DNA of 20,131 nt from NCBI GenBank assembly GCA_041548245.1, contig JBFESZ010000031.1:1-20131 (forward strand). Reading direction: 5' to 3'. Made by a program: the position numbers. Positions 3,001 to 12,000 of the stretch are shown piece by piece. The number at the start of each line of letters is the position of its first letter. The stretch's first letter is position 1. Origin of the DNA: Sulfurimonadaceae bacterium (GTDB taxonomy: Bacteria; Campylobacterota; Campylobacteria; Campylobacterales; Sulfurimonadaceae).

Positions 3001-6000
3001 TCCTTAATCTATATGCAATCGTATCATTTCAAATTAAATAAGCAGTAAACATCCTAAGGAAGTCTTGTTCCGTAAGAAACAGCAGAAAAACTGCTGATTA
3101 TTTGTCTGTTATCATGCGCATTTCTATGCTTTCATTGATAAAGATATGACTCAGGTAGATGACAAAAAGCAGGGGAAAAAGTATTCCCACAAAAGGTATG
3201 AGTGTCAAGAGGTACATCAAAAGTGTTCGAATACGGACCTGATTGCCGACAATGGCCTTTATTCGAAAGAATTCCTCTTTGGTATTGATGGTCGAGCCGA
3301 CATCAAAGACAAGCATCTTATGAAAGAAATAATAAGCAGGTATATTAAAGGCGATGATATTTAAAACAGGGATGAAATAAAAAGGAATCAAGACAATATA
3401 CAAAAGAATCATAATCAAAAAAGATTTTAAGCCGTGCCAGATAACATAGACAAGACTACCGTGCCCTTTGATATGAAAAGGGGGATAGTGGCGAGATTTG
3501 AGTTTTTTTACGACAAGCGGCGTGAAAAAACCGACAATGGTCACTGCGATGATAACGGCAAAGATCAGTATGAAATAACTGGCGACCAAGAAGATAACCT
3601 TTTCGATTATCCAGCGTAGGATATCGTTTTGCAGCATGCTCTCAAGGATATCAGAGCTTTGAATCGATTCAATAAGGGCTATCGGGTTGATGTCGAACAA
3701 GGAGGAAGCTTCTGTAGCATTGTCATCATAGGTAATACTTATAGAGCTTTGTGAACGGGTCTGTGTAGGTGTGGAGTATTCTGTTGTAGTCTTTTCGATG
3801 CTGACAGCGTTCATCTTGTTGTTTAAAACCTCTATACCGTAGAACAAGGAGGTGAAAAGAATAGCCAAGGTGATAAGAAGAGGCAGAAGAGCCAAGCCTA
3901 GAAAATAAGGGGTGAAAAAATCTTTTAAGGAAAGCTTGAAGAGGTTTCTTCTTTTCATCATGTTCAACTCCGTTTAATCTGTTGATAGATTATAGCTATT
4001 TCATTGTTAAAGCTCTTAAAGCCAAAGCCGTCGCATTGGCACGGCCGTACCAGTTGAAATTAAAAAGACCAAAGGCTTCTCCGCCAAAGAGAGAATGCTT
4101 TGAGGGAAGATAAGCATACTCTTCTCTTTGCACAATGCCTTTTTTTAGCTCATTTTCCAAAGAAGCGATCAGACGCCTCAGAAAATAGCCTCTTTCATTT
4201 TCAGTTTTAAGGCTTTTTAGGATGATAATGTACTCAGCCATTTCGGTGAAGTAGTTCAGTCCGGGGTGTTCCAAAAGATAACGTGCCCGTTGCTTCGCTC
4301 GCGCAAGAATAAGTTTCTTATCCTCTTCCAGGCAAAAGGTGTCGGCTGTATAAGCTTTGGCATAGGCAAGGTAGAAGTGCGAAGGGCGAGTATACCAAGT
4401 GGCACATCTATCCTCTTTATTCAACTGGATGATCTCATGTATTAGACGGCAGGAAGCCTCTTTCGCTTTTCTTGTTGGTAAAGGCAGTGTTGCGAGGTTG
4501 TTCTCATATAAAGAGAGGGCAGTGAGGATGTTCAGGTTGACAACACAATCAACATCGTTGATGAGATCCATAATTCGGTTGATCGGTTTAGCCGGAGCCT
4601 CCTCTTCTGCCCAAGTCATGAAGGCACCGCTGTTTGGTTCTTTCCATTGCAGGTTTAAGGGGTGCTCAACTGAACGGTTCAGGTCGGTGAAGTGGCTAAG
4701 GGTATGGACAAAGCCATCAAGAAATGTTTTGTCCTGATGATCAAGATATAACCAGACAAAAGCCTGTGAAGAGGTATCGAAGTCGTTACCGACATTGAGA
4801 ATACGCATGGACGTGTTATACCATTTGGTATCGAAGCTTCGTATCCAATTTCCCTCATCATCTTGCAGCAAAGGCCAAAAAGCGATAGTACCCTTGGGTT
4901 CACTTGTCTGTTGAGCGTCCTTGATATAATTGCTGATCTGTCTGTTAGCCGAGGAGAAGAGATTCTGTATAGAGGGGAGATCATATTCCTGATTGACCTC
5001 ATGCAAGAGGATAAGGGTTTGCAGGGTCATGAAAGCATTGGACTCGGGTATCTCTTTACGTGCACCGTCATACATGGGATAGCTTGGCCATGTACCCAGA
5101 TATCTCTCTATAGGGTGTTCGGCTATTTGATTCTTCTGTATGTAGGCATAAAGTTTGGCTTCAAGAGGAGGAAGGCTTTGAGCGGCCCATAGATTCAGGC
5201 CGATTAAAACAAGTATAAAGAGACGCACTATCTGAGTAGTACTGCTTTGGCGAAGATGTCGACATTATCCTCTACACACAAGGCAAAAACAAGCAGACAC
5301 GGTGCTTCCACATTATAGTCGCTTAATAGGATCTTGGATACGGCACTGATCGTTACCGTATCCTCCTGAAGCAAGATCTCCGCATCAAAGTCAAGCTCCT
5401 TTTTAACACCATGAAAATCAAGCATGCCATTGAGGGTATAAGCGTTTGTCTCTTTTGCTTTATGGATACCGGTGATCGTATAAGATGCGAGTGGAAACTT
5501 TTCTGCTTCGGTCGTCTCGTGCATGTTCTCATCACGATCACTGTTGTCACTCATGAAGAGACTCAGCTCAACAGAGAGTTCACCTGTGATACTGGTGATA
5601 TCATCACCCGAAATGTTTAAATTGGCATGCAGGCTATGATTGAGCGGATCGATCGTACTGTCACCAAGGACTTCAGTATGTGCGGCTACGAAACCCTCTT
5701 TGAGTTCTAGGTTCCCTGCAAAGAGCGAAAAGCTCAAGAGTAAGAGAAGTGAAAATGTTTTCATGGATCATCCTTTGAATAAATTATAGCACGTTTAATG
5801 CAAACTTTTTGACAAGGCGATAGCAAGGCCGAGACCGGACGCTATCCATGCAATAAAGACCATCAGTTGCGAAAGTTTTAAGAGGCTTGTCTCTTTGCTT
5901 AAGGTCATAAACACGATGACATTATAATAAGAGATCGTAAAAGGATATATGACGGACAAAGCCAGTTTCCATTCAAAGTAGGAAAATATATAGCTTGCTA

Positions 6001-9000: not shown

Positions 9001-12000
9001 CATCTCTATATGCGGCAATGTTTCCAGTACCAACAGACTCAGTACAAGCGCAAAGAGGTAGGCTGTGAAACTCATGATAATTGTCTCAAAAAAGAGGTTC
9101 TTGATGATAAACAGACGGCTTTTACCCAGGGCTCGCATGATACCGAACTCCTCTTTTCGGGAGTTTACGATCATGCTCATCACGGAAGCGATTCCCATCA
9201 GTCCCATGGTAAAGGCCAAAGAAGAGATGACGAAAGAGGAATTCTCAATGATCTTGAACTGGTTGTATTCCTGTACAAAGCTTTGCGTTGTCTTGACGTC
9301 GGTCTCCGTATCCAAGGTGGCGATCTTTTCTTTAATCTCATCAGTGTATTTAGGCGATTGTGCGGAAACAAGAATAAAGGAAGCGGAACGGCTGAAGAGG
9401 GTACCTGCATCTTCAATGTTCATAACAACACCTCCTTCTTCAAACCCGATATCACTGGTGTATGAGCCTGATATCTTAAAACGTCGGTTCCCTATCTTGA
9501 CACTTTTGCTGCGAAGCTGTTTGGATAGGGTCCTGCCCAGAAGCACTTCACCCTGTTTCGGGTATTTCCCCTCTTGAAGTTTGTAATGAGTAAGGTGATT
9601 CTCACTCACCCCGTAGATGCCGGCGATAGGAATATGTCCTACGGGAGAAGCACCGACGATCATGGCATAGCTTGATTTGACATGTTCAATCGCATTGATG
9701 TCTTGCATCAAATCAATATTGACATTGGAGAAGAAAGTATCGGCAATACCCCGTTGCGTAATGATGATATCCCCATCCGTCTTGATCATCTTTGAATACA
9801 TCCCGATCACGCCTTGAGAGATCGAGGTGATCAAAAAAATAGCCATCACGGCAATGGTGATGGAAGAGAAGATTAAAAAGCTTTTGAATGGGTTTTTTGA
9901 TAGTGCCTTAAGAGACATCATCGCTCAATGGCTGATTTCAGTTCATTAAGTGTCAAAATATAATCAATACTATCAACTTTTTCATCTTTGATGCGTAGAA
10001 TCGTCAGTTTTCCTTCTTTATGCGGTACAAAGTTCTCAAACTGGTCTTCGTAGTGAAGATAGATGGGATGTTTGTACTTTTGCATCTTTGGCAGGGCGAA
10101 CATGGTGGTGATAATGGAAGGCATTCTATTGATATCGGCAATAAAGACGGCATTATGATCGACGATATAGCTTGATTTCTTTGTGTCAAGATAGTCATTG
10201 ACCAAAGCACCGGTGTCTTTTTCAAAAGAGACAATTACGAGTTTCGTTGCTGAAGGGATCTGCATCGGATATTTGTGCTGGTTTTCGTACTTGTAGGGCT
10301 TTAGTTTGTTTAGATGTGTCCCGACACCCAGTGTTTCAGCGGCAAAGAGAGTAAATGATAAAGTCAGTATCAAAAATAGTGTTTTCATTAATGTTTCCTT
10401 TTTAGGTGATAGACGATTATAGCGTTTATTTATTACAAAATGGTAAGGACAGGTATCTCACTTGGCGCTTTGTAACGAATCTGTACTCCCCAGTAGCCCA
10501 AACCGCGTGTGACGTATAAAAGTGTCTTGCCATGAATATATTGACCTGAAAAATAGGGCTGAAACCGTTTGACAAGTTTGTTGAAAGGGTAGACTTGTCC
10601 GGCATGCGTGTGTCCGCTTAGCTGGATGTCAATACGATAGTTGGAGGTGTGTTCAATGTCTTTTGGCTGATGGGCCAATAGAATCGTCGAGATGTTTTCA
10701 TCAAGACGAGAAAAGAGCTCATCGATCGGACGTTTTACTCCTCTGGCAAAACTGTAGCGGTCACTCAATCCGACCAGCTGTAAAGGAGTATTATTGATAT
10801 TTAAGATAGCAATACTGTTATCCAGGCATGTAATGCCGTTTTGGTTCATTTCCTTTTTGAGCATATTAGGCCCATAGACGATGTCATGATTCCCGGTGAC
10901 ATAATAGGCCGCCGCTTCCAAAGCCTTAAAGGCATGGAAGTGTTTGCGAAGACGAAAGGCAAAAGTCTGGAGAATGTCGCCCGTGAAGACGACAATATCC
11001 GGATGCAGTGCATTGATCTTTTTGACCAGGTTTTCGAGATAGTGGATATCAAAACTCTTTTTCATATGTAAGTCTGAGAGCTGCACGATACGAAGTCCCT
11101 TAAGCTCATCTGCAAAGTTGCCAGGCTGAAGTGTAATCTCTTCAAAGGGAAAATTTTTCCATCCCGTCTGCAGACTCATACTTTGCTCCAGAGTTTTTCA
11201 TTGAGTTTCAGCTCGTGTACGATACCTATGGCAAGTTTCAAGGTCGAAATATACTCTTGTACCAGCTTATAATCAAGCAAAGAGCTGAAGACGGTAGGCT
11301 CAAAGAGGTCTTTTTTGTATTCAAGTGCGAGATATATTTGGGCGTTGTTAAAACTGACATACAGAGGTACGCTGGAGCGTTTTTTAAAGTCCAAAAGCCT
11401 TTTCATCATGGCATGCGTAAGAATATAACGCGCTTCGATCTGGTTGGTGCCGTAGACGACAAAATGTCGCTCGAAGGTCGGATCATCCATCTTGATCAAA
11501 GCTTCCTGAGAGATATTGTTACGCTGCAGCCATGAACCGATGATCTTTCCGAATAATTTTTCGGCCTTGTCGGGAAGGATGGTCGTGCGTCCTTTGAAGT
11601 CCTTGTTAAAATCAGCGATAATAAAGAGGCCTTGAAAGATCGTATGCCAAGAAGTCCTTCCTTTTGAATCTTTGCTCTTGTATTCGGCATGGACATCTGA
11701 GAACCTTAGATTGACTCCATCTATCTGACCCTTGACAAGATCATTGCCGCTGTAACGGTCTATGCGCTTTCTAAAGAGCTTTGATCGTTCAAAATGGGTC
11801 TGGGAGACACAGAGTGTTTTGCTGTATTGTAAGGAGGCATCGATCTGTTCAATGAGGGGATGGATGATATTGTCTTTAAACTCATGAGCGTAGTCTTTGC
11901 TCATGACTTTTTTGATCCATATGAAAAGTGCGAACCCGATGAAAATAGGAGCAAGATCACTCTCAGAGTGTGAATTTGAGCTGTTAAAAAAAGCATAGGT

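Follow-up and report, generated by a model that had tools for sequence, protein, structure and literature searches.

A heme-copper oxidase-like membrane protein with a dismantled CuB/FeB site in a conserved transporter operon of Campylobacterota

Introduction

What role could be played by a membrane protein that has the fold of heme-copper oxidase (HCO) subunit I but lacks the histidines of the catalytic metal site, and is encoded next to transporter genes? This question is raised by a locus of a Sulfurimonadaceae bacterium (GCA_041548245.1, contig JBFESZ010000031.1), which we analyzed in a window of 20,131 nucleotides (Table 1) and compared with related loci from genomes and metagenomes.

Table 1. 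Features of the operon and of the HCO-like protein in the window
Feature	Position	Strand	Evidence
Secreted 410-aa protein, directly downstream	3996..5228	minus	4/80 genome loci
Periplasmic YceI-family lipocalin, 178 aa, signal peptide	5228..5764	minus	Pfam YceI E 1.4e-14, 55.1 bits (cut-off 23.7)
Compact MFS-fold membrane protein, 302 aa	5795..6703	minus	AF2 and Foldseek; 71/80 genome and 73/80 metagenome loci
HCO-subunit-I-like protein, 513 aa	6700..8241	minus	ORF, ATG start; AF2, Foldseek and VIA-align
C-terminal extension, four helices, residues 397-513	6703..7053	minus	VIA-align range; AF2; conservation
R375, helix 12, aligned to conserved Arg of CcoN and NorB	7117..7119	minus	120/120; alignments
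H303-x7-H311-x-H313: loop His, high-spin heme proximal His, second low-spin heme ligand	7303..7335	minus	120/120 each; aligned to CcoN and one cNOR NorB
Helix 7 to helix-8 start: Y227, R234, E245 invariant, no conserved His	7507..7563	minus	Alignment, n=120; hhalign
Invariant loop and helix-6 start, G-P-H-G-D-N-T-L-G-M-S, residues 183-193	7663..7695	minus	Conservation; hhalign; translation checked
H53, aligned to CcoN helix-2 low-spin heme ligand	8083..8085	minus	120/120; HMMER vs 6xkw_n and hhalign
ABC ATPase	8225..8902	minus	ABC_tran E 1.2e-35
MacB/FtsX-type permease, 357 aa, 4 TM helices and periplasmic domain	8848..9921	minus	MacB_PCD E 6.7e-15, FtsX E 4.1e-14; hydropathy
Secreted/periplasmic 156-aa protein, no Cys	9918..10388	minus	Pfam and PDB searches without match
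Cytoplasmic metallophosphoesterase, 248 aa, YaeI/LpxG-like	10433..11179	minus	Metallophos E 1.4e-14

A divergent family within the heme-copper oxidase superfamily

Family-level scans barely register the protein: its Pfam COX1 match (E 8.9e-4, 18.7 bits) falls under the 34.8-bit cut-off, and the NCBIfam scan returned a noise match only. The AF2 model, derived from an input alignment of 42 sequences, has a pLDDT of 85.6 and a pTM of 0.85, and comprises 16 long helices, that is, a 12-helix core (residues 1-396) followed by four additional helices. All 50 PDB matches listed by Foldseek are HCO subunit I structures, headed by the cbb3 structure 9g83_t (E 1.0e-6). The VIA-align superpositions on cNOR NorB (4xyd_A, Z 25.9, 374 aligned residues, rmsd 3.9; 3o0r_B, Z 25.8) and on cbb3 CcoN (3mk7_D, Z 25.5) cover residues 1-396 in all rows, and the C-terminal extension is missing from every solved HCO matched. 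A HMMER search with the family profile reaches cbb3 CcoN 6xkw_n (E 2.9e-5), with the helix-2 His and the H-x7-H-x-H motif aligned; the hhalign comparison with 31 CcoN sequences is weak overall (probability 54% global, 21% local), with very low column confidence in helix 7. The first-pass annotation had recognized both the fold, nearest to cbb3 and cNOR, and the sub-threshold family scores, and these assignments hold; its statement that no PDB sequence hit exists is contradicted by the match to 6xkw_n.

Residue conservation was examined in the query and 119 relatives of 480-560 aa, out of 168 fetched proteins. H53, D187, Y227, R234, E245, H303, H311, H313, R375, H453, R472 and D499 are invariant (120/120). 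H53, H311 and H313, the histidines predicted to bind the hemes, are thus retained, as had been noted, and the conserved ligands suggest that the protein binds heme; because these three residues and the helix-12 Arg common to CcoN and NorB are all invariant, heme appears hard to do without. The added helices (401-431, 439-456, 461-484 and 490-509 in the AF2 model) carry H453, R472 and D499.

The former metal site is altered at each of its canonical positions. In true HCOs, the His-His pair lies in the region formed by helix 7 and the start of helix 8. Residues 208-302 of the query contain no His, in agreement with the earlier description, and across the family (n=120) no column in this range is a conserved His, the highest counts being 87/120 at column 217 (placed by the model at the cytoplasmic end of helix 7), 18/120 at column 233 and 9/120 at column 238. 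In the hhalign alignment, CcoN Y266 corresponds to Y227, and H272/H273 correspond to G238/E239, with low column confidence. The invariant Asp had been placed opposite the helix-6 His; D187 is indeed invariant but aligns with the CuB His position itself (H222 to D187, G-D-N-T-L-G vs G-H-N-A-V-G, against the same CcoN set). H185, two residues upstream, had been listed as invariant along with H53, D187, E245, H303, H311, H313 and H453; it is found in 119/120 sequences and is replaced by Arg in the most divergent member, P0128. Residues 178-187 are the least confident stretch of the model. Altogether, the protein very probably represents a new, divergent family on the cbb3/cNOR side of the HCO superfamily, in which the ligands of both hemes were kept, the three-His CuB/FeB site was dismantled and four C-terminal helices were gained.

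Genomic context and distribution of the family

The family is present in 212 species genomes; we analyzed the best 80 of these 212 genome loci and 80 of 251 metagenome loci, many on contigs that end early. The labels of the 80 best loci are all Campylobacterota or unplaced metagenome. The distribution is patchy: the family occurs in 13/250 other sampled genomes of the phylum (14/251 with the own genome), and in 6/10 sampled genomes of one family-level group (f11).

The conserved gene set consists of the HCO-like protein, a MacB/FtsX-type ABC pair, an MFS-fold protein, a YceI protein, the 156-aa protein and a metallo-phosphodiesterase, joined in some lineages by a two-component system. In the 80 genome loci, the neighbors include the ATPase in 79, the permease in 78, the MFS-fold protein in 71, YceI in 67, the 156-aa protein in 57 and the metallophosphoesterase in 55; the respective numbers for the metagenome loci are 75, 67, 73, 65, 44 and 36, with a response regulator in 23 and a kinase in 22. 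Gene order varies without breaking up the set: Sulfurimonas-type loci have the genes for the 156-aa protein and the phosphoesterase upstream, Arcobacter/Sulfurospirillum-type loci have them downstream, and the order in genome G091 is MFS-YceI-permease-ATPase-HCO-like-156-aa-like. In 10/80 genome loci, the YaeI/LpxG-like esterase is replaced by a hydrolase with human NAPE-PLD as the top PDB match (E 4.6e-38), and the two enzymes occur together in none of the 80. CxxCH motifs were found in 8/834 ORFs between -4.5 and +6.5 kb in the 80 genome loci, none recurring in more than three loci. The first-pass annotation had reported a conserved, patchily distributed operon with the ABC pair, the MFS-fold and YceI proteins and no cytochrome c partner, all of which is borne out, but the set is wider than it proposed: the phosphodiesterase gene lies beyond its boundaries, the 156-aa protein moves together with the other components, and some lineages add the two-component system and an operator.

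The gene junctions in the window are tight or overlapping; the start of the MFS-fold gene and the HCO-like stop share 4 bases. The listed TTG start of the ATPase at 8902 is less likely than the ATG at 8848, which yields 207 aa (orthologs: 203-209 aa) and a 1-base overlap with the permease stop. The nearest NCBIfam models are LolD, DevA and FtsE for the ATPase, all under cut-off, and LolCE/ADOP for the permease, and the scores of the pair are all far under the equivalog cut-offs; by sequence, the permease matches 5xu1_M, MacB and YtrF in PDB. The MFS-fold protein has no match in Pfam or PDB sequence searches; its AF2 model (pLDDT 92.5, 11 long helices) retrieves only MFS transporters among the top Foldseek matches (best 8t69, E 1.6e-5), including the lipid carriers MFSD2A and EfpA. 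The metallophosphoesterase scores 112.3 bits with LpxG and 109.2 bits with YaeI, each under cut-off, and the 156-aa protein shows a weak lead to a YtfJ-like thioredoxin-type fold (Atlas rank 30, YtfJ_HI0045, score 0.90, 154 shared features). The 410-aa protein, with no Pfam or NCBIfam match, is lineage-specific and therefore probably outside the core.

In Arcobacteraceae-type loci, the set is extended by a two-component system with a candidate operator. Among loci with sufficient sequence, 36 have the kinase and regulator genes behind the operon, in the same orientation. Upstream of the permease gene, a direct repeat of TTCAT (x3, 11-base spacing) is present in 28 of these 36 kinase loci vs 1/60 loci without the kinase, and elsewhere in the loci it has 18 matches in 1.86 Mb (both strands). 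The linked kinase comes closest to heavy-metal sensor kinases (223.9 bits, under the 292.55 cut-off), the match being limited to its cytoplasmic part. In these lineages, the operon may be under inducible control by the linked two-component system through the putative TTCAT operator.

Potential functions of the HCO-like protein and its operon

We tentatively suggest that the HCO-like protein, rather than reducing O2 or NO in respiration, is the heme redox module of an envelope system; perhaps, in analogy to LcoA-BcnA, it is a CuB-less diheme module of lipid or quinone handling. The six to seven genes would handle a hydrophobic molecule at the periplasmic face of the inner membrane, the candidate cargo being an isoprenoid quinone, an oxidized lipid or an amide/phospho-lipid. 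The heme protein would link the menaquinol pool to the lipophilic cargo by electron exchange; a possible site is a heme pocket at the former place of the second metal, with D187, R234, E245 and Y227 in its walls. The MacB-type pair would draw on ATP to pull the cargo out of the membrane and deliver it to, or receive it from, the soluble YceI lipocalin, in a LolCDE/LolA-like manner; the MFS-fold protein would transport the cargo, or a precursor of it, across the membrane, and the cytoplasmic YaeI/LpxG-like or NAPE-PLD-like phosphodiesterase would remove a head group. The lipid theme is suggested by the YceI family, the MacB/LolC-type extractor, the lipid-carrier matches of the MFS-fold protein, and the exchange of an LpxG/YaeI-like esterase for a NAPE-PLD-like hydrolase. 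By analogy, lipid peroxidation repair would be the single most likely specific function, although taken by itself it is doubtful.

We consider it unlikely that the protein is a new binuclear enzyme, in which a high-spin heme faces a non-heme metal (Fe, Mn or other) on the carboxylate-rich D187 and E245, perhaps with H185, and NO, O2 or peroxide is the substrate that is reduced; such an enzyme could, for instance, supply the NO reductase missing from nitrate-ammonifying Campylobacterota. The near-complete conservation of these residues fits such a site, and so does the low confidence of the H-x-D loop in an otherwise confident model, as expected of a cofactor-dependent site. In PMC11214002, HCO families without the active-site tyrosine or with an altered ligand are read as NO reductases, and gNOR has Asp for one His; most Sulfurospirillum genomes, according to PMC4794192, possess Nap, Nrf and Nos yet lack a nor cluster; and the family is frequent in the f11 group. 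However, H185 gives way to Arg in P0128, for two of the three canonical ligands no conserved substitute can be aligned with confidence, no electron-donor subunit is linked, and the operon is transporter/lipid in type. Furthermore, Arcobacter iocasae encodes both a member of the family and a canonical norC-norB-VWA cluster, the NorB of which scores 661.8 bits to 3o0r_B.

An improbable alternative is a cofactor-poor pseudo-enzyme, in which the HCO scaffold has become a channel, a transporter or a structural partner to the ABC and MFS proteins, and the conserved histidines line a pore or bind a transported metal instead of heme. Loss of the catalytic metal site, the apparently buried R472, D499 and H453 in the added helices of the model, the two transporter-type proteins adjoining the gene in nearly all loci and the resemblance of the linked kinase to heavy-metal sensors are all compatible with this possibility, but the invariance of the heme histidines, and of the helix-12 Arg that CcoN and NorB also have, is hard to explain without heme, and the protein has no Met- or Cys-rich metal motifs and a single Cys in 513 residues. 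HrtBA removes heme from the membrane under HssRS control in Gram-positive bacteria, and the conserved heme ligands, the MacB-type pair and the dedicated two-component system of some lineages could likewise denote a heme store, sensor or chaperone with an ABC pair clearing membrane heme, but this is very unlikely, as it leaves YceI, the MFS-fold protein and the alternating phosphodiesterases unexplained, and no heme-efflux NCBIfam model is among the matches listed (25 for the ATPase, 10 for the permease).

Comparison with known systems

The ABC pair resembles MacB-type (type VII) systems (LolCDE-LolA, MacAB, HrtBA) in the separate ATPase and the 4-TM FtsX permease with a MacB periplasmic core domain. 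LolCDE works with LolA, a soluble periplasmic carrier of a hydrophobic ligand that is encoded alongside, and here YceI, also such a carrier, is encoded beside the pair. Unlike in these systems, the equivalog scores are low and no membrane-fusion or outer-membrane partner gene was found to recur in the loci; to our knowledge, no other MacB-type system has an HCO-like protein linked to it.

The closest studied analog would be LcoA-BcnA, a cytochrome b561 and a YceI lipocalin that limit membrane lipid peroxidation. PMC9113575 describes YceI lipocalin genes that are fused or linked to a diheme cytochrome b561, and increased lipid peroxidation in mutants. In both cases, a membrane b-heme protein (predicted here) is genetically tied to a secreted YceI lipocalin; here, however, the fold is that of HCO and not the four-helix b561 fold, and five more conserved genes are attached. 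The analogy rests on one common component, YceI, and on heme proteins of unrelated fold. The own genome contains no YceI-cytochrome b561 pair, its sole PF01292 match being ~82 kb from the second YceI gene.

Among HCO relatives, gNOR (Murali et al. 2024, PMC11214002), where Asp substitutes one histidine, and other recently proposed families likewise have altered active sites but, as described in that survey, retain the two remaining histidines along with a cupredoxin-type or cytochrome partner. The Sulfurospirillum cavolei row of the survey gives C = 1 and zero elsewhere, yet one S. cavolei genome encodes one CcoN and the HCO-like protein, so the present family was not counted there. Compared with CcoN of the C family, the protein shares the 12-helix fold, the helix-2 His, H-x7-H-x-H, the helix-12 Arg and the aligned helix-7 Tyr, but has ~15% identity, Asp for the helix-6 CuB His, no His-His pair, four extra helices and no nearby ccoO/ccoP cytochrome c genes. 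From cNOR NorB, its best structural match, it differs in the absence of the three-His-plus-Glu FeB site and of norC, whereas H-x7-H-x-H and the helix-12 Arg align. An old respiratory scaffold thus seems to have been given a new use.

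Fold and extent of the family

The 513-aa haem-copper oxidase (HCO)-like protein encoded in the window matches the Pfam COX1 model (PF00115) with E 8.9e-4 and 18.7 bits, below the gathering cut-off of 34.8 bits, and the NCBIfam scan assigned it to no family; the PF00115 label is precomputed for some of its relatives. A word-indexed search yielded 547 proteins at E <= 1e-3 among 8000 scored candidates, and the identities of the 120 relatives listed lie between 86% and 46%, with lengths of 513-525 aa in nearly all of them. The exhaustive phmmer search of 1.84 billion cluster representatives retrieved only 48 matches (18 at E <= 1e-30), many of which are fragments and none of which is a canonical oxidase; so small a set, with the canonical oxidases outside it, delineates what is, by sequence comparison, a compact and well separated family. 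A metagenome scan led with P0128, the most divergent relative, detected no relative with more than 44% identity to P0128. No fused relatives of 899-2565 aa were found at E <= 1e-10 in a search whose negative outcome is weak evidence, its candidate list being crowded by long proteins, and a 748-aa open frame in the divergent genome G091, considered as an ATPase fusion, was rejected given that it does not share the reading frame of the ATPase.

The AF2 model built from the 42-sequence family alignment (pLDDT 85.6, pTM 0.85) contains 16 long helices, and all 50 matches listed by Foldseek against the PDB are HCO subunits I, with the cbb3 oxidases at the top (9g83_t, E 1.0e-6; 3mk7_A, 2.8e-6) and a nitric oxide reductase of the cytochrome c-dependent kind (cNOR) at E 5.8e-4 (4xyd_A). 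Structural alignment with VIA-align gave Z 25.9 for the latter (374 aligned residues, rmsd 3.9), 25.8 for the cNOR 3o0r_B and 25.5 for the cbb3 oxidase 3mk7_D, compared with 21.6 for the best qNOR and at most 20.7 for A/B-type oxidases. Because every VIA-align row stops near model residue 396, the 12-helix HCO core is predicted to comprise residues 1-396; residues 397-513 form, in the model, four added helices that have no counterpart in the matched structures. Low model confidence is limited to residues 178-187, the invariant G-P-H-G-D loop, and residues 307-309, just before H311; such stretches are to be expected at sites where a cofactor shapes the fold, and fit this expectation without proving it. 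The first-pass annotation, which had placed the protein closest to cbb3 and cNOR subunits I and outside the Pfam and NCBIfam families, is thus borne out on these points. Its statement that no PDB sequence is matched fails: the profile of the family alignment reaches the Rhodobacter capsulatus CcoN (6xkw_n) with E 2.9e-5, in an alignment that pairs both the helix-2 R-x-x-H and the H-x7-H-x-H motifs.

The Sulfurospirillum cavolei genome G121 encodes a second, unrelated, weakly COX1-like ORF of 424 aa (L198:4562-5836, on contig C17; Pfam COX1 E 2.2e-5 and 23.9 bits, over positions 170-399 of the model), located between the genes for a Kup K+ transporter and a chemoreceptor; its hhalign probability against the HCO-like family is 0.3%.

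Haem ligands and the second metal site

Conservation was assessed in an alignment of the query with 119 of 168 fetched proteins, namely, those 480-560 aa long. Residues H53, D187, Y227, R234, E245, W246, H303, H311, H313, R375, H453, R472 and D499 are identical in all 120 sequences. H185 is present in 119 and is replaced by Arg in P0128, which is 35% identical to the query. Accordingly, the invariance originally claimed stands for H53, D187, E245, H303, H311, H313 and H453 but not for H185.

The family was aligned with 31 Campylobacterota CcoN from genomes using hhalign, at a probability of 54% in global mode (E 1.9e-5) and 21% in local mode, and both modes produced the identical residue map.

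Residues of CcoN (numbering of the own genome) and their counterparts in the HCO-like protein, from hhalign
CcoN residue	Role or position	HCO-like residue	Column confidence
H64	haem b, helix 2	H53	
H222	CuB, helix 6	D187	
Y266	helix-7 Tyr	Y227	low
H272/H273	CuB pair	G238/E239	very low
H352	loop His	H303	
H360	haem b3, proximal	H311	
H362	haem b, helix 10	H313	
R451	helix 12	R375	

Both bis-His ligands of the low-spin haem (helices 2 and 10) and the proximal His of the high-spin haem (helix 10) are present in 120 of 120 sequences and align to their CcoN counterparts, so that the helix-2 His and the H-x7-H-x-H motif are retained, as first described. The proximal His also aligns to that of NorB: the cNOR NorB of Arcobacter iocasae, aligned over helices 9-12 (probability 27%, E 6.5e-4), has the three His of H-x7-H-x-H and the helix-12 Arg in common with the HCO-like protein. 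H303 is presumably the counterpart of the Mg/Mn ligand of A-type oxidases. The haem-ligand pattern is therefore kept, and from these conserved ligands haem binding is predicted.

The second metal site is a different matter. In helix 6, the sequence G-D-N-T-L-G-M-S-F-T of the HCO-like protein faces G-H-N-A-V-G-F-V-L-T of CcoN, which makes the match of D187 to the CuB His locally persuasive. In helix 7, the columns are of very low confidence and include a five-residue gap, the removal of which brings L233/R234 opposite the His-His pair. Whichever helix-7 alignment is adopted, none of the columns 208-302 is conserved as His in the 120 sequences, in agreement with the initial report of a missing His-His pair: His occurs at column 217 in 87 of 120, a position that the model places where helix 7 ends on the cytoplasmic side, at column 233 in 18, the highest count near the end of helix 7, and at column 238 in 9. 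Judging from these alignments, the three-His CuB/FeB site, formed by one His of helix 6 and two adjacent His of helix 7, is absent, with D187 occupying the helix-6 position.

Gene neighborhood

In the window, the HCO-like gene belongs to a tight array of minus-strand genes, most of which overlap, the gaps being of 30 and 44 bases. The co-directional genes of the minus strand may form a longer array, with approximate limits at 17841 and 2043. The scan of positions 2000-14500 for promoters and terminators did not delimit a transcription unit, finding 27 promoters against 23.1 expected from shuffles, that is, no better than shuffles.

Features of the array in the window and occurrence of the genes in the best 80 genome loci and in 80 metagenome loci (numbers of loci)
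Feature	Position	Strand	Junction	Genome loci	Metagenome loci
LemA and DUF3137 gene pair	11176-12707	minus	4-base overlap with start of metallophosphoesterase gene	1	
Metallophosphoesterase	10433-11179	minus	44-base gap to 156-aa gene	55	36
156-aa secreted protein	9918-10388	minus	4-base overlap with permease gene	57	44
FtsX/MacB-type permease	8848-9921	minus	1-base overlap with ATPase gene if ATG at 8848 is the ATPase start	78	67
ABC ATPase	8225-8848/8902	minus	17-base overlap with HCO-like gene	79	75
HCO-like protein, 513 aa	6700-8241	minus	4-base overlap with MFS-fold gene		
MFS-fold membrane protein, 302 aa	5795-6703	minus	30-base gap to YceI gene	71	73
YceI	5228-5764	minus	1-base overlap with 410-aa gene	67	65
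410-aa secreted protein	3996-5228	minus	array end	4	
410-aa protein and CysZ/EI24-family protein genes	3098-5228	minus			
Hairpin	3080-3096	both			
Response regulator					23
Sensor kinase					22

The LemA/DUF3137 pair lies directly upstream of the array and, being shared with the closest relative only, probably does not belong to the system. At the other end, the gene for the 410-aa protein, which belongs to no known family, is followed by one for a membrane protein of the CysZ/EI24 family; a hairpin there has a terminator-like score on both strands.

The genome collection contains 212 loci with a relative of the HCO-like gene, and the counts refer to the best 80 of these, all of which are labelled Campylobacterota (Sulfurimonas, Sulfurimonadaceae, Sulfurospirillum, Arcobacter, Halarcobacter, Malaciobacter, Poseidonibacter, Sulfurovum, Sulfurovaceae, Sulfuricurvum) or unplaced metagenome; in the metagenomes, 80 loci were kept of 251. 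The counts are lower bounds because many contigs end inside or just past the cluster. The conserved operon of a MacB-type ABC pair, an MFS-fold protein and YceI that had been proposed is upheld by both the 80 genome and the 80 metagenome loci; its extent is wider than proposed, taking in the 156-aa protein and a phosphodiesterase. The gene set stays together through rearrangements. In loci of the Sulfurimonas type, the 156-aa gene and the esterase (that is, the metallophosphoesterase) gene are upstream of the permease gene and, in those of the Arcobacter/Sulfurospirillum type, downstream of the YceI gene. G091 has the order MFS-fold protein, YceI, permease, ATPase, HCO-like protein, 156-aa-like protein (hhalign E 1.1e-30; the MFS-fold match has E 4.5e-50) and a metallo-beta-lactamase-fold hydrolase. 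Directly upstream of the rearranged cluster of this single divergent lineage is a gene for a PMT/ArnT-type polyprenyl-phosphate-dependent glycosyltransferase (L194:650-2311), which may be a coincidence.

Among the 834 ORFs located between -4.5 and +6.5 kb in the 80 genome loci, 8 contain CxxCH, and none of these recurs in more than 3 loci. As first noted, there is no adjacent cytochrome c electron-entry subunit; the recurrent neighbors are the ABC pair, the MFS-fold protein, YceI, the 156-aa protein and the esterase, with no cupredoxin-type subunit among them, although no search aimed at cupredoxins was made.

Partner proteins

The permease matches PF12704 (MacB_PCD, 56.4 bits) and PF02687 (FtsX, 53.1 bits), and the ATPase matches PF00005 (ABC_tran, 123.5 bits), all above the cut-offs. 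With a 4-TM FtsX permease, a MacB periplasmic core domain and a separate ATPase, the pair is a MacB-type (type VII) transporter. The YceI protein (55.1 bits against a cut-off of 23.7) has a hydrophobic N-terminus without Cys and is predicted to be a secreted YceI-family lipocalin.

The 302-aa protein is modelled with pLDDT 92.5 as 11 long helices (6 + 5), in contrast to 12 in the MFS. Its top Foldseek matches are all MFS proteins, VMAT2 (E 1.6e-5), SV2A, MFSD2A, MdfA, EfpA and FLVCR1 among others, with TM-scores (normalised by query length) of up to 0.69, whereas none of 25 family members matches an MFS model of Pfam. The profiles of the 302-aa and 156-aa proteins have no PDB match at E <= 10, and the Pfam scans of 25 and 19 members, respectively, returned only scattered noise. 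A predicted complex of the HCO-like protein, two haems and the MFS-fold protein scored 0.02 against a mark of 0.32, which bears on binding in neither direction. The 156-aa protein, with a signal peptide and without Cys, could be assigned to no family; its match in the Atlas to YtfJ_HI0045 (rank 30, score 0.90, 154 shared features) offers no more than a lead.

The esterase is recognised by the Metallophos model (55.4 bits, above cut-off), and its nearest NCBIfam models are LpxG (112.3 bits) and YaeI (109.2 bits), neither of which reaches its cut-off. In 10 of the 80 genome loci, the esterase is missing and a metallo-beta-lactamase-fold hydrolase is encoded beside YceI. Among PDB sequences, this hydrolase matches best the phospholipase D of humans that hydrolyses NAPE (4qn9_A, E 4.6e-38); it was noted at L075:8588-9502 (minus strand), at L194:7782-8690 and in 9 further loci. 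The esterase is found in 55 loci, both enzymes in none and neither in 15, 12 of which are contigs shorter than 7 kb. Since the two never occur together, one slot is filled by two unrelated metallo-phosphodiesterase folds, and the best-known relatives of both cut lipid head groups.

A two-component system and its candidate operator

In the Arcobacteraceae-type loci, the esterase gene is followed on the same strand by genes for a regulator of the OmpR type and for a sensor kinase, whose positions relative to the start of the HCO-like gene are about +4240 and +4900. The NCBIfam model nearest to the kinase, with respect to the cytoplasmic part only, is the heavy-metal sensor subfamily (223.9 bits against a cut-off of 292.55). 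Upstream of the permease gene, by about 60-110 bases, these loci contain an operator-like element in which an inverted ATGAA...TTCAT leads into three TTCAT repeats at 11-base spacing (loci L049-L083 and L127-L190; e.g., L079:6110-6160). When NTCAT is accepted as the third repeat, 28 of 36 loci with a downstream kinase carry the motif, as opposed to 1 of 60 without one; the remaining 33 loci, too short for scoring, comprise 26 without and 7 with the motif. The remainder of the loci, 1.86 Mb, yielded 18 matches with both strands counted. Because evenly spaced direct repeats suit a regulator of the OmpR family and the motif is linked to the kinase, we infer that expression of the operon is autoregulated and induced by a signal. 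The window contains neither the kinase nor the TTCAT motif.

Distribution and oxidases in the same genomes

The HCO-like gene is patchily distributed, as had been claimed: at E <= 1e-30, it is carried by 14 of the 251 phylum genomes sampled (13 of 250 once the own genome is set aside). By numbered family-level group, it occurs in 2 of 16 genomes of the own family (f1), 1 of 6 in f4, 3 of 11 in f7, 6 of 10 in f11 and 1 of 3 in f12; it was not found in the genomes searched from f2 (81), f3 (105) and, taken together, f5, f6, f8, f9, f10 and f13 (18). The own genome encodes two CcoN that are 96% identical (C92:338-1675 and C2:51585-52922) and an A-type-like COX1 (497.6 bits, C36:16035-17384), so the HCO-like protein is an addition to, rather than a replacement of, the oxidases; no COX1 match of NorB size was found in this genome. 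The cultured carriers include Sulfurimonas lithotrophica, Sulfurospirillum diekertiae, Sulfurospirillum cavolei, S. arcachonense, Arcobacter iocasae and Malaciobacter halophilus, which makes the function testable.

Possible functions

That all haem ligands are retained while all three metal ligands are lost speaks against the protein being a plain reductase of O2 or NO. From the neighbors, namely, an extractor of the MacB/LolC type, a soluble YceI lipocalin, a small MFS-fold protein and a lipid-type phosphodiesterase, the cargo would be hydrophobic and handled at the periplasmic face. The chemistry that we infer from this combination would make the HCO-derived protein the haem partner of a system for lipophilic molecules, passing electrons between menaquinol and a molecule borne by the lipocalin or by the membrane, while the ABC pair would power transfer between the membrane and YceI. 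This general reading, built by analogy, we hold to be plausible, if somewhat short of probable; repair of peroxidation damage, its specific version, is a rather doubtful conjecture.

Alternatively, the invariant D187 and E245 could belong to a new haem/non-haem metal centre with Asp, Glu and His ligands that performs NO, O2 or peroxide chemistry, and a passage of PMC4794192 according to which most Sulfurospirillum lack nor genes would agree with such a role. However, H185 gives way to Arg in one lineage, the gene context is of a transporter type and, in Arcobacter iocasae, the HCO-like gene exists alongside a canonical norC-norB cluster elsewhere in the genome, so we consider this centre unlikely. 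With still less confidence, one may envisage the first HCO relative that works without a second metal, in which menaquinol would reduce lipid hydroperoxides or peroxyl radicals, or alternatively NO, within the bilayer at a distal pocket of Asp, Arg, Glu and Tyr, and the ABC extractor and YceI would clear the products. Dye-decolourising peroxidases have an Asp/Arg distal pair, of which the pocket of the HCO-like protein, with its invariant Asp and Arg, is reminiscent. If true, a haem enzyme of this kind would be a new catalytic class in a superfamily whose catalogue is regarded as complete. That the protein is a scaffold or channel poor in cofactors is similarly improbable in view of the intact haem ligands, and haem handling in the manner of HssRS-HrtBA would leave YceI and the esterases unexplained and appears the least credible of these proposals.

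The HCO scaffold, tied here to an operon for a transporter and a lipid carrier, appears to have been re-used outside respiration.

Comparison with known systems

The HCO superfamily is among the best-mapped enzyme families of bioenergetics, and, to our knowledge, every accepted HCO family combines haem, a three-His metal centre and an electron-entry partner. In cbb3 CcoN, a Tyr is cross-linked to the helix-6 CuB His; in the HCO-like protein, Y227 aligns to this Tyr, with low column confidence, and its partner would be an Asp. The cNOR NorB has a FeB site of three His and a Glu and an adjoining norC, whereas the HCO-like protein has neither.

Our literature search found no paper that describes the family; the name NorH, considered as a possible label, does not occur in the papers listed on the topic, and the terms sought for this family are absent from the Sulfurovum S8 transcriptome paper (PMC10045233). 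The HCO census in Dataset S6 of Murali 2024 (PMC11214002) distinguishes 20 classes, and its row for Sulfurospirillum cavolei gives C = 1 and zero for all other classes; a genome of this species carries one CcoN and the HCO-like gene. An unnamed clade might be contained in the SI appendix, alignment or tree of that study. Public names range from "hypothetical protein" through "cytochrome c oxidase subunit 1-like" to "cbb3-type cytochrome c oxidase subunit I". The last of these, given to WP_167750419.1 and others although they lack CuB ligands and ccoOQP partners, is misleading, and such automatic names would inflate the counts of oxidase genes in Campylobacterota. The gene set has no described counterpart, and the HCO-like protein is a new form inside a known superfamily.

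The closest parallel is LcoA-BcnA. According to passages of PMC9113575, a gene for a YceI-type lipocalin is linked or fused to that for a dihaem cytochrome b561 in many Proteobacteria, products of lipid peroxidation build up in Burkholderia when either gene is mutated, and YceI relatives bind ubiquinone-8; others bind the fatty amide erucamide (Sisinni 2010 as cited in PMC3928532). The own genome has no b561-YceI pair, its sole PF01292 match being unlinked. In LcoA-BcnA, the lipocalin is linked to cytochrome b561 (PF01292), whereas here YceI is linked to a protein with HCO-like haem ligands, and we use that system as a working analogy only. With the operon, a YceI lipocalin would be linked to a haem protein of the membrane for a second time, independently of the first case, which could clarify the role of YceI.
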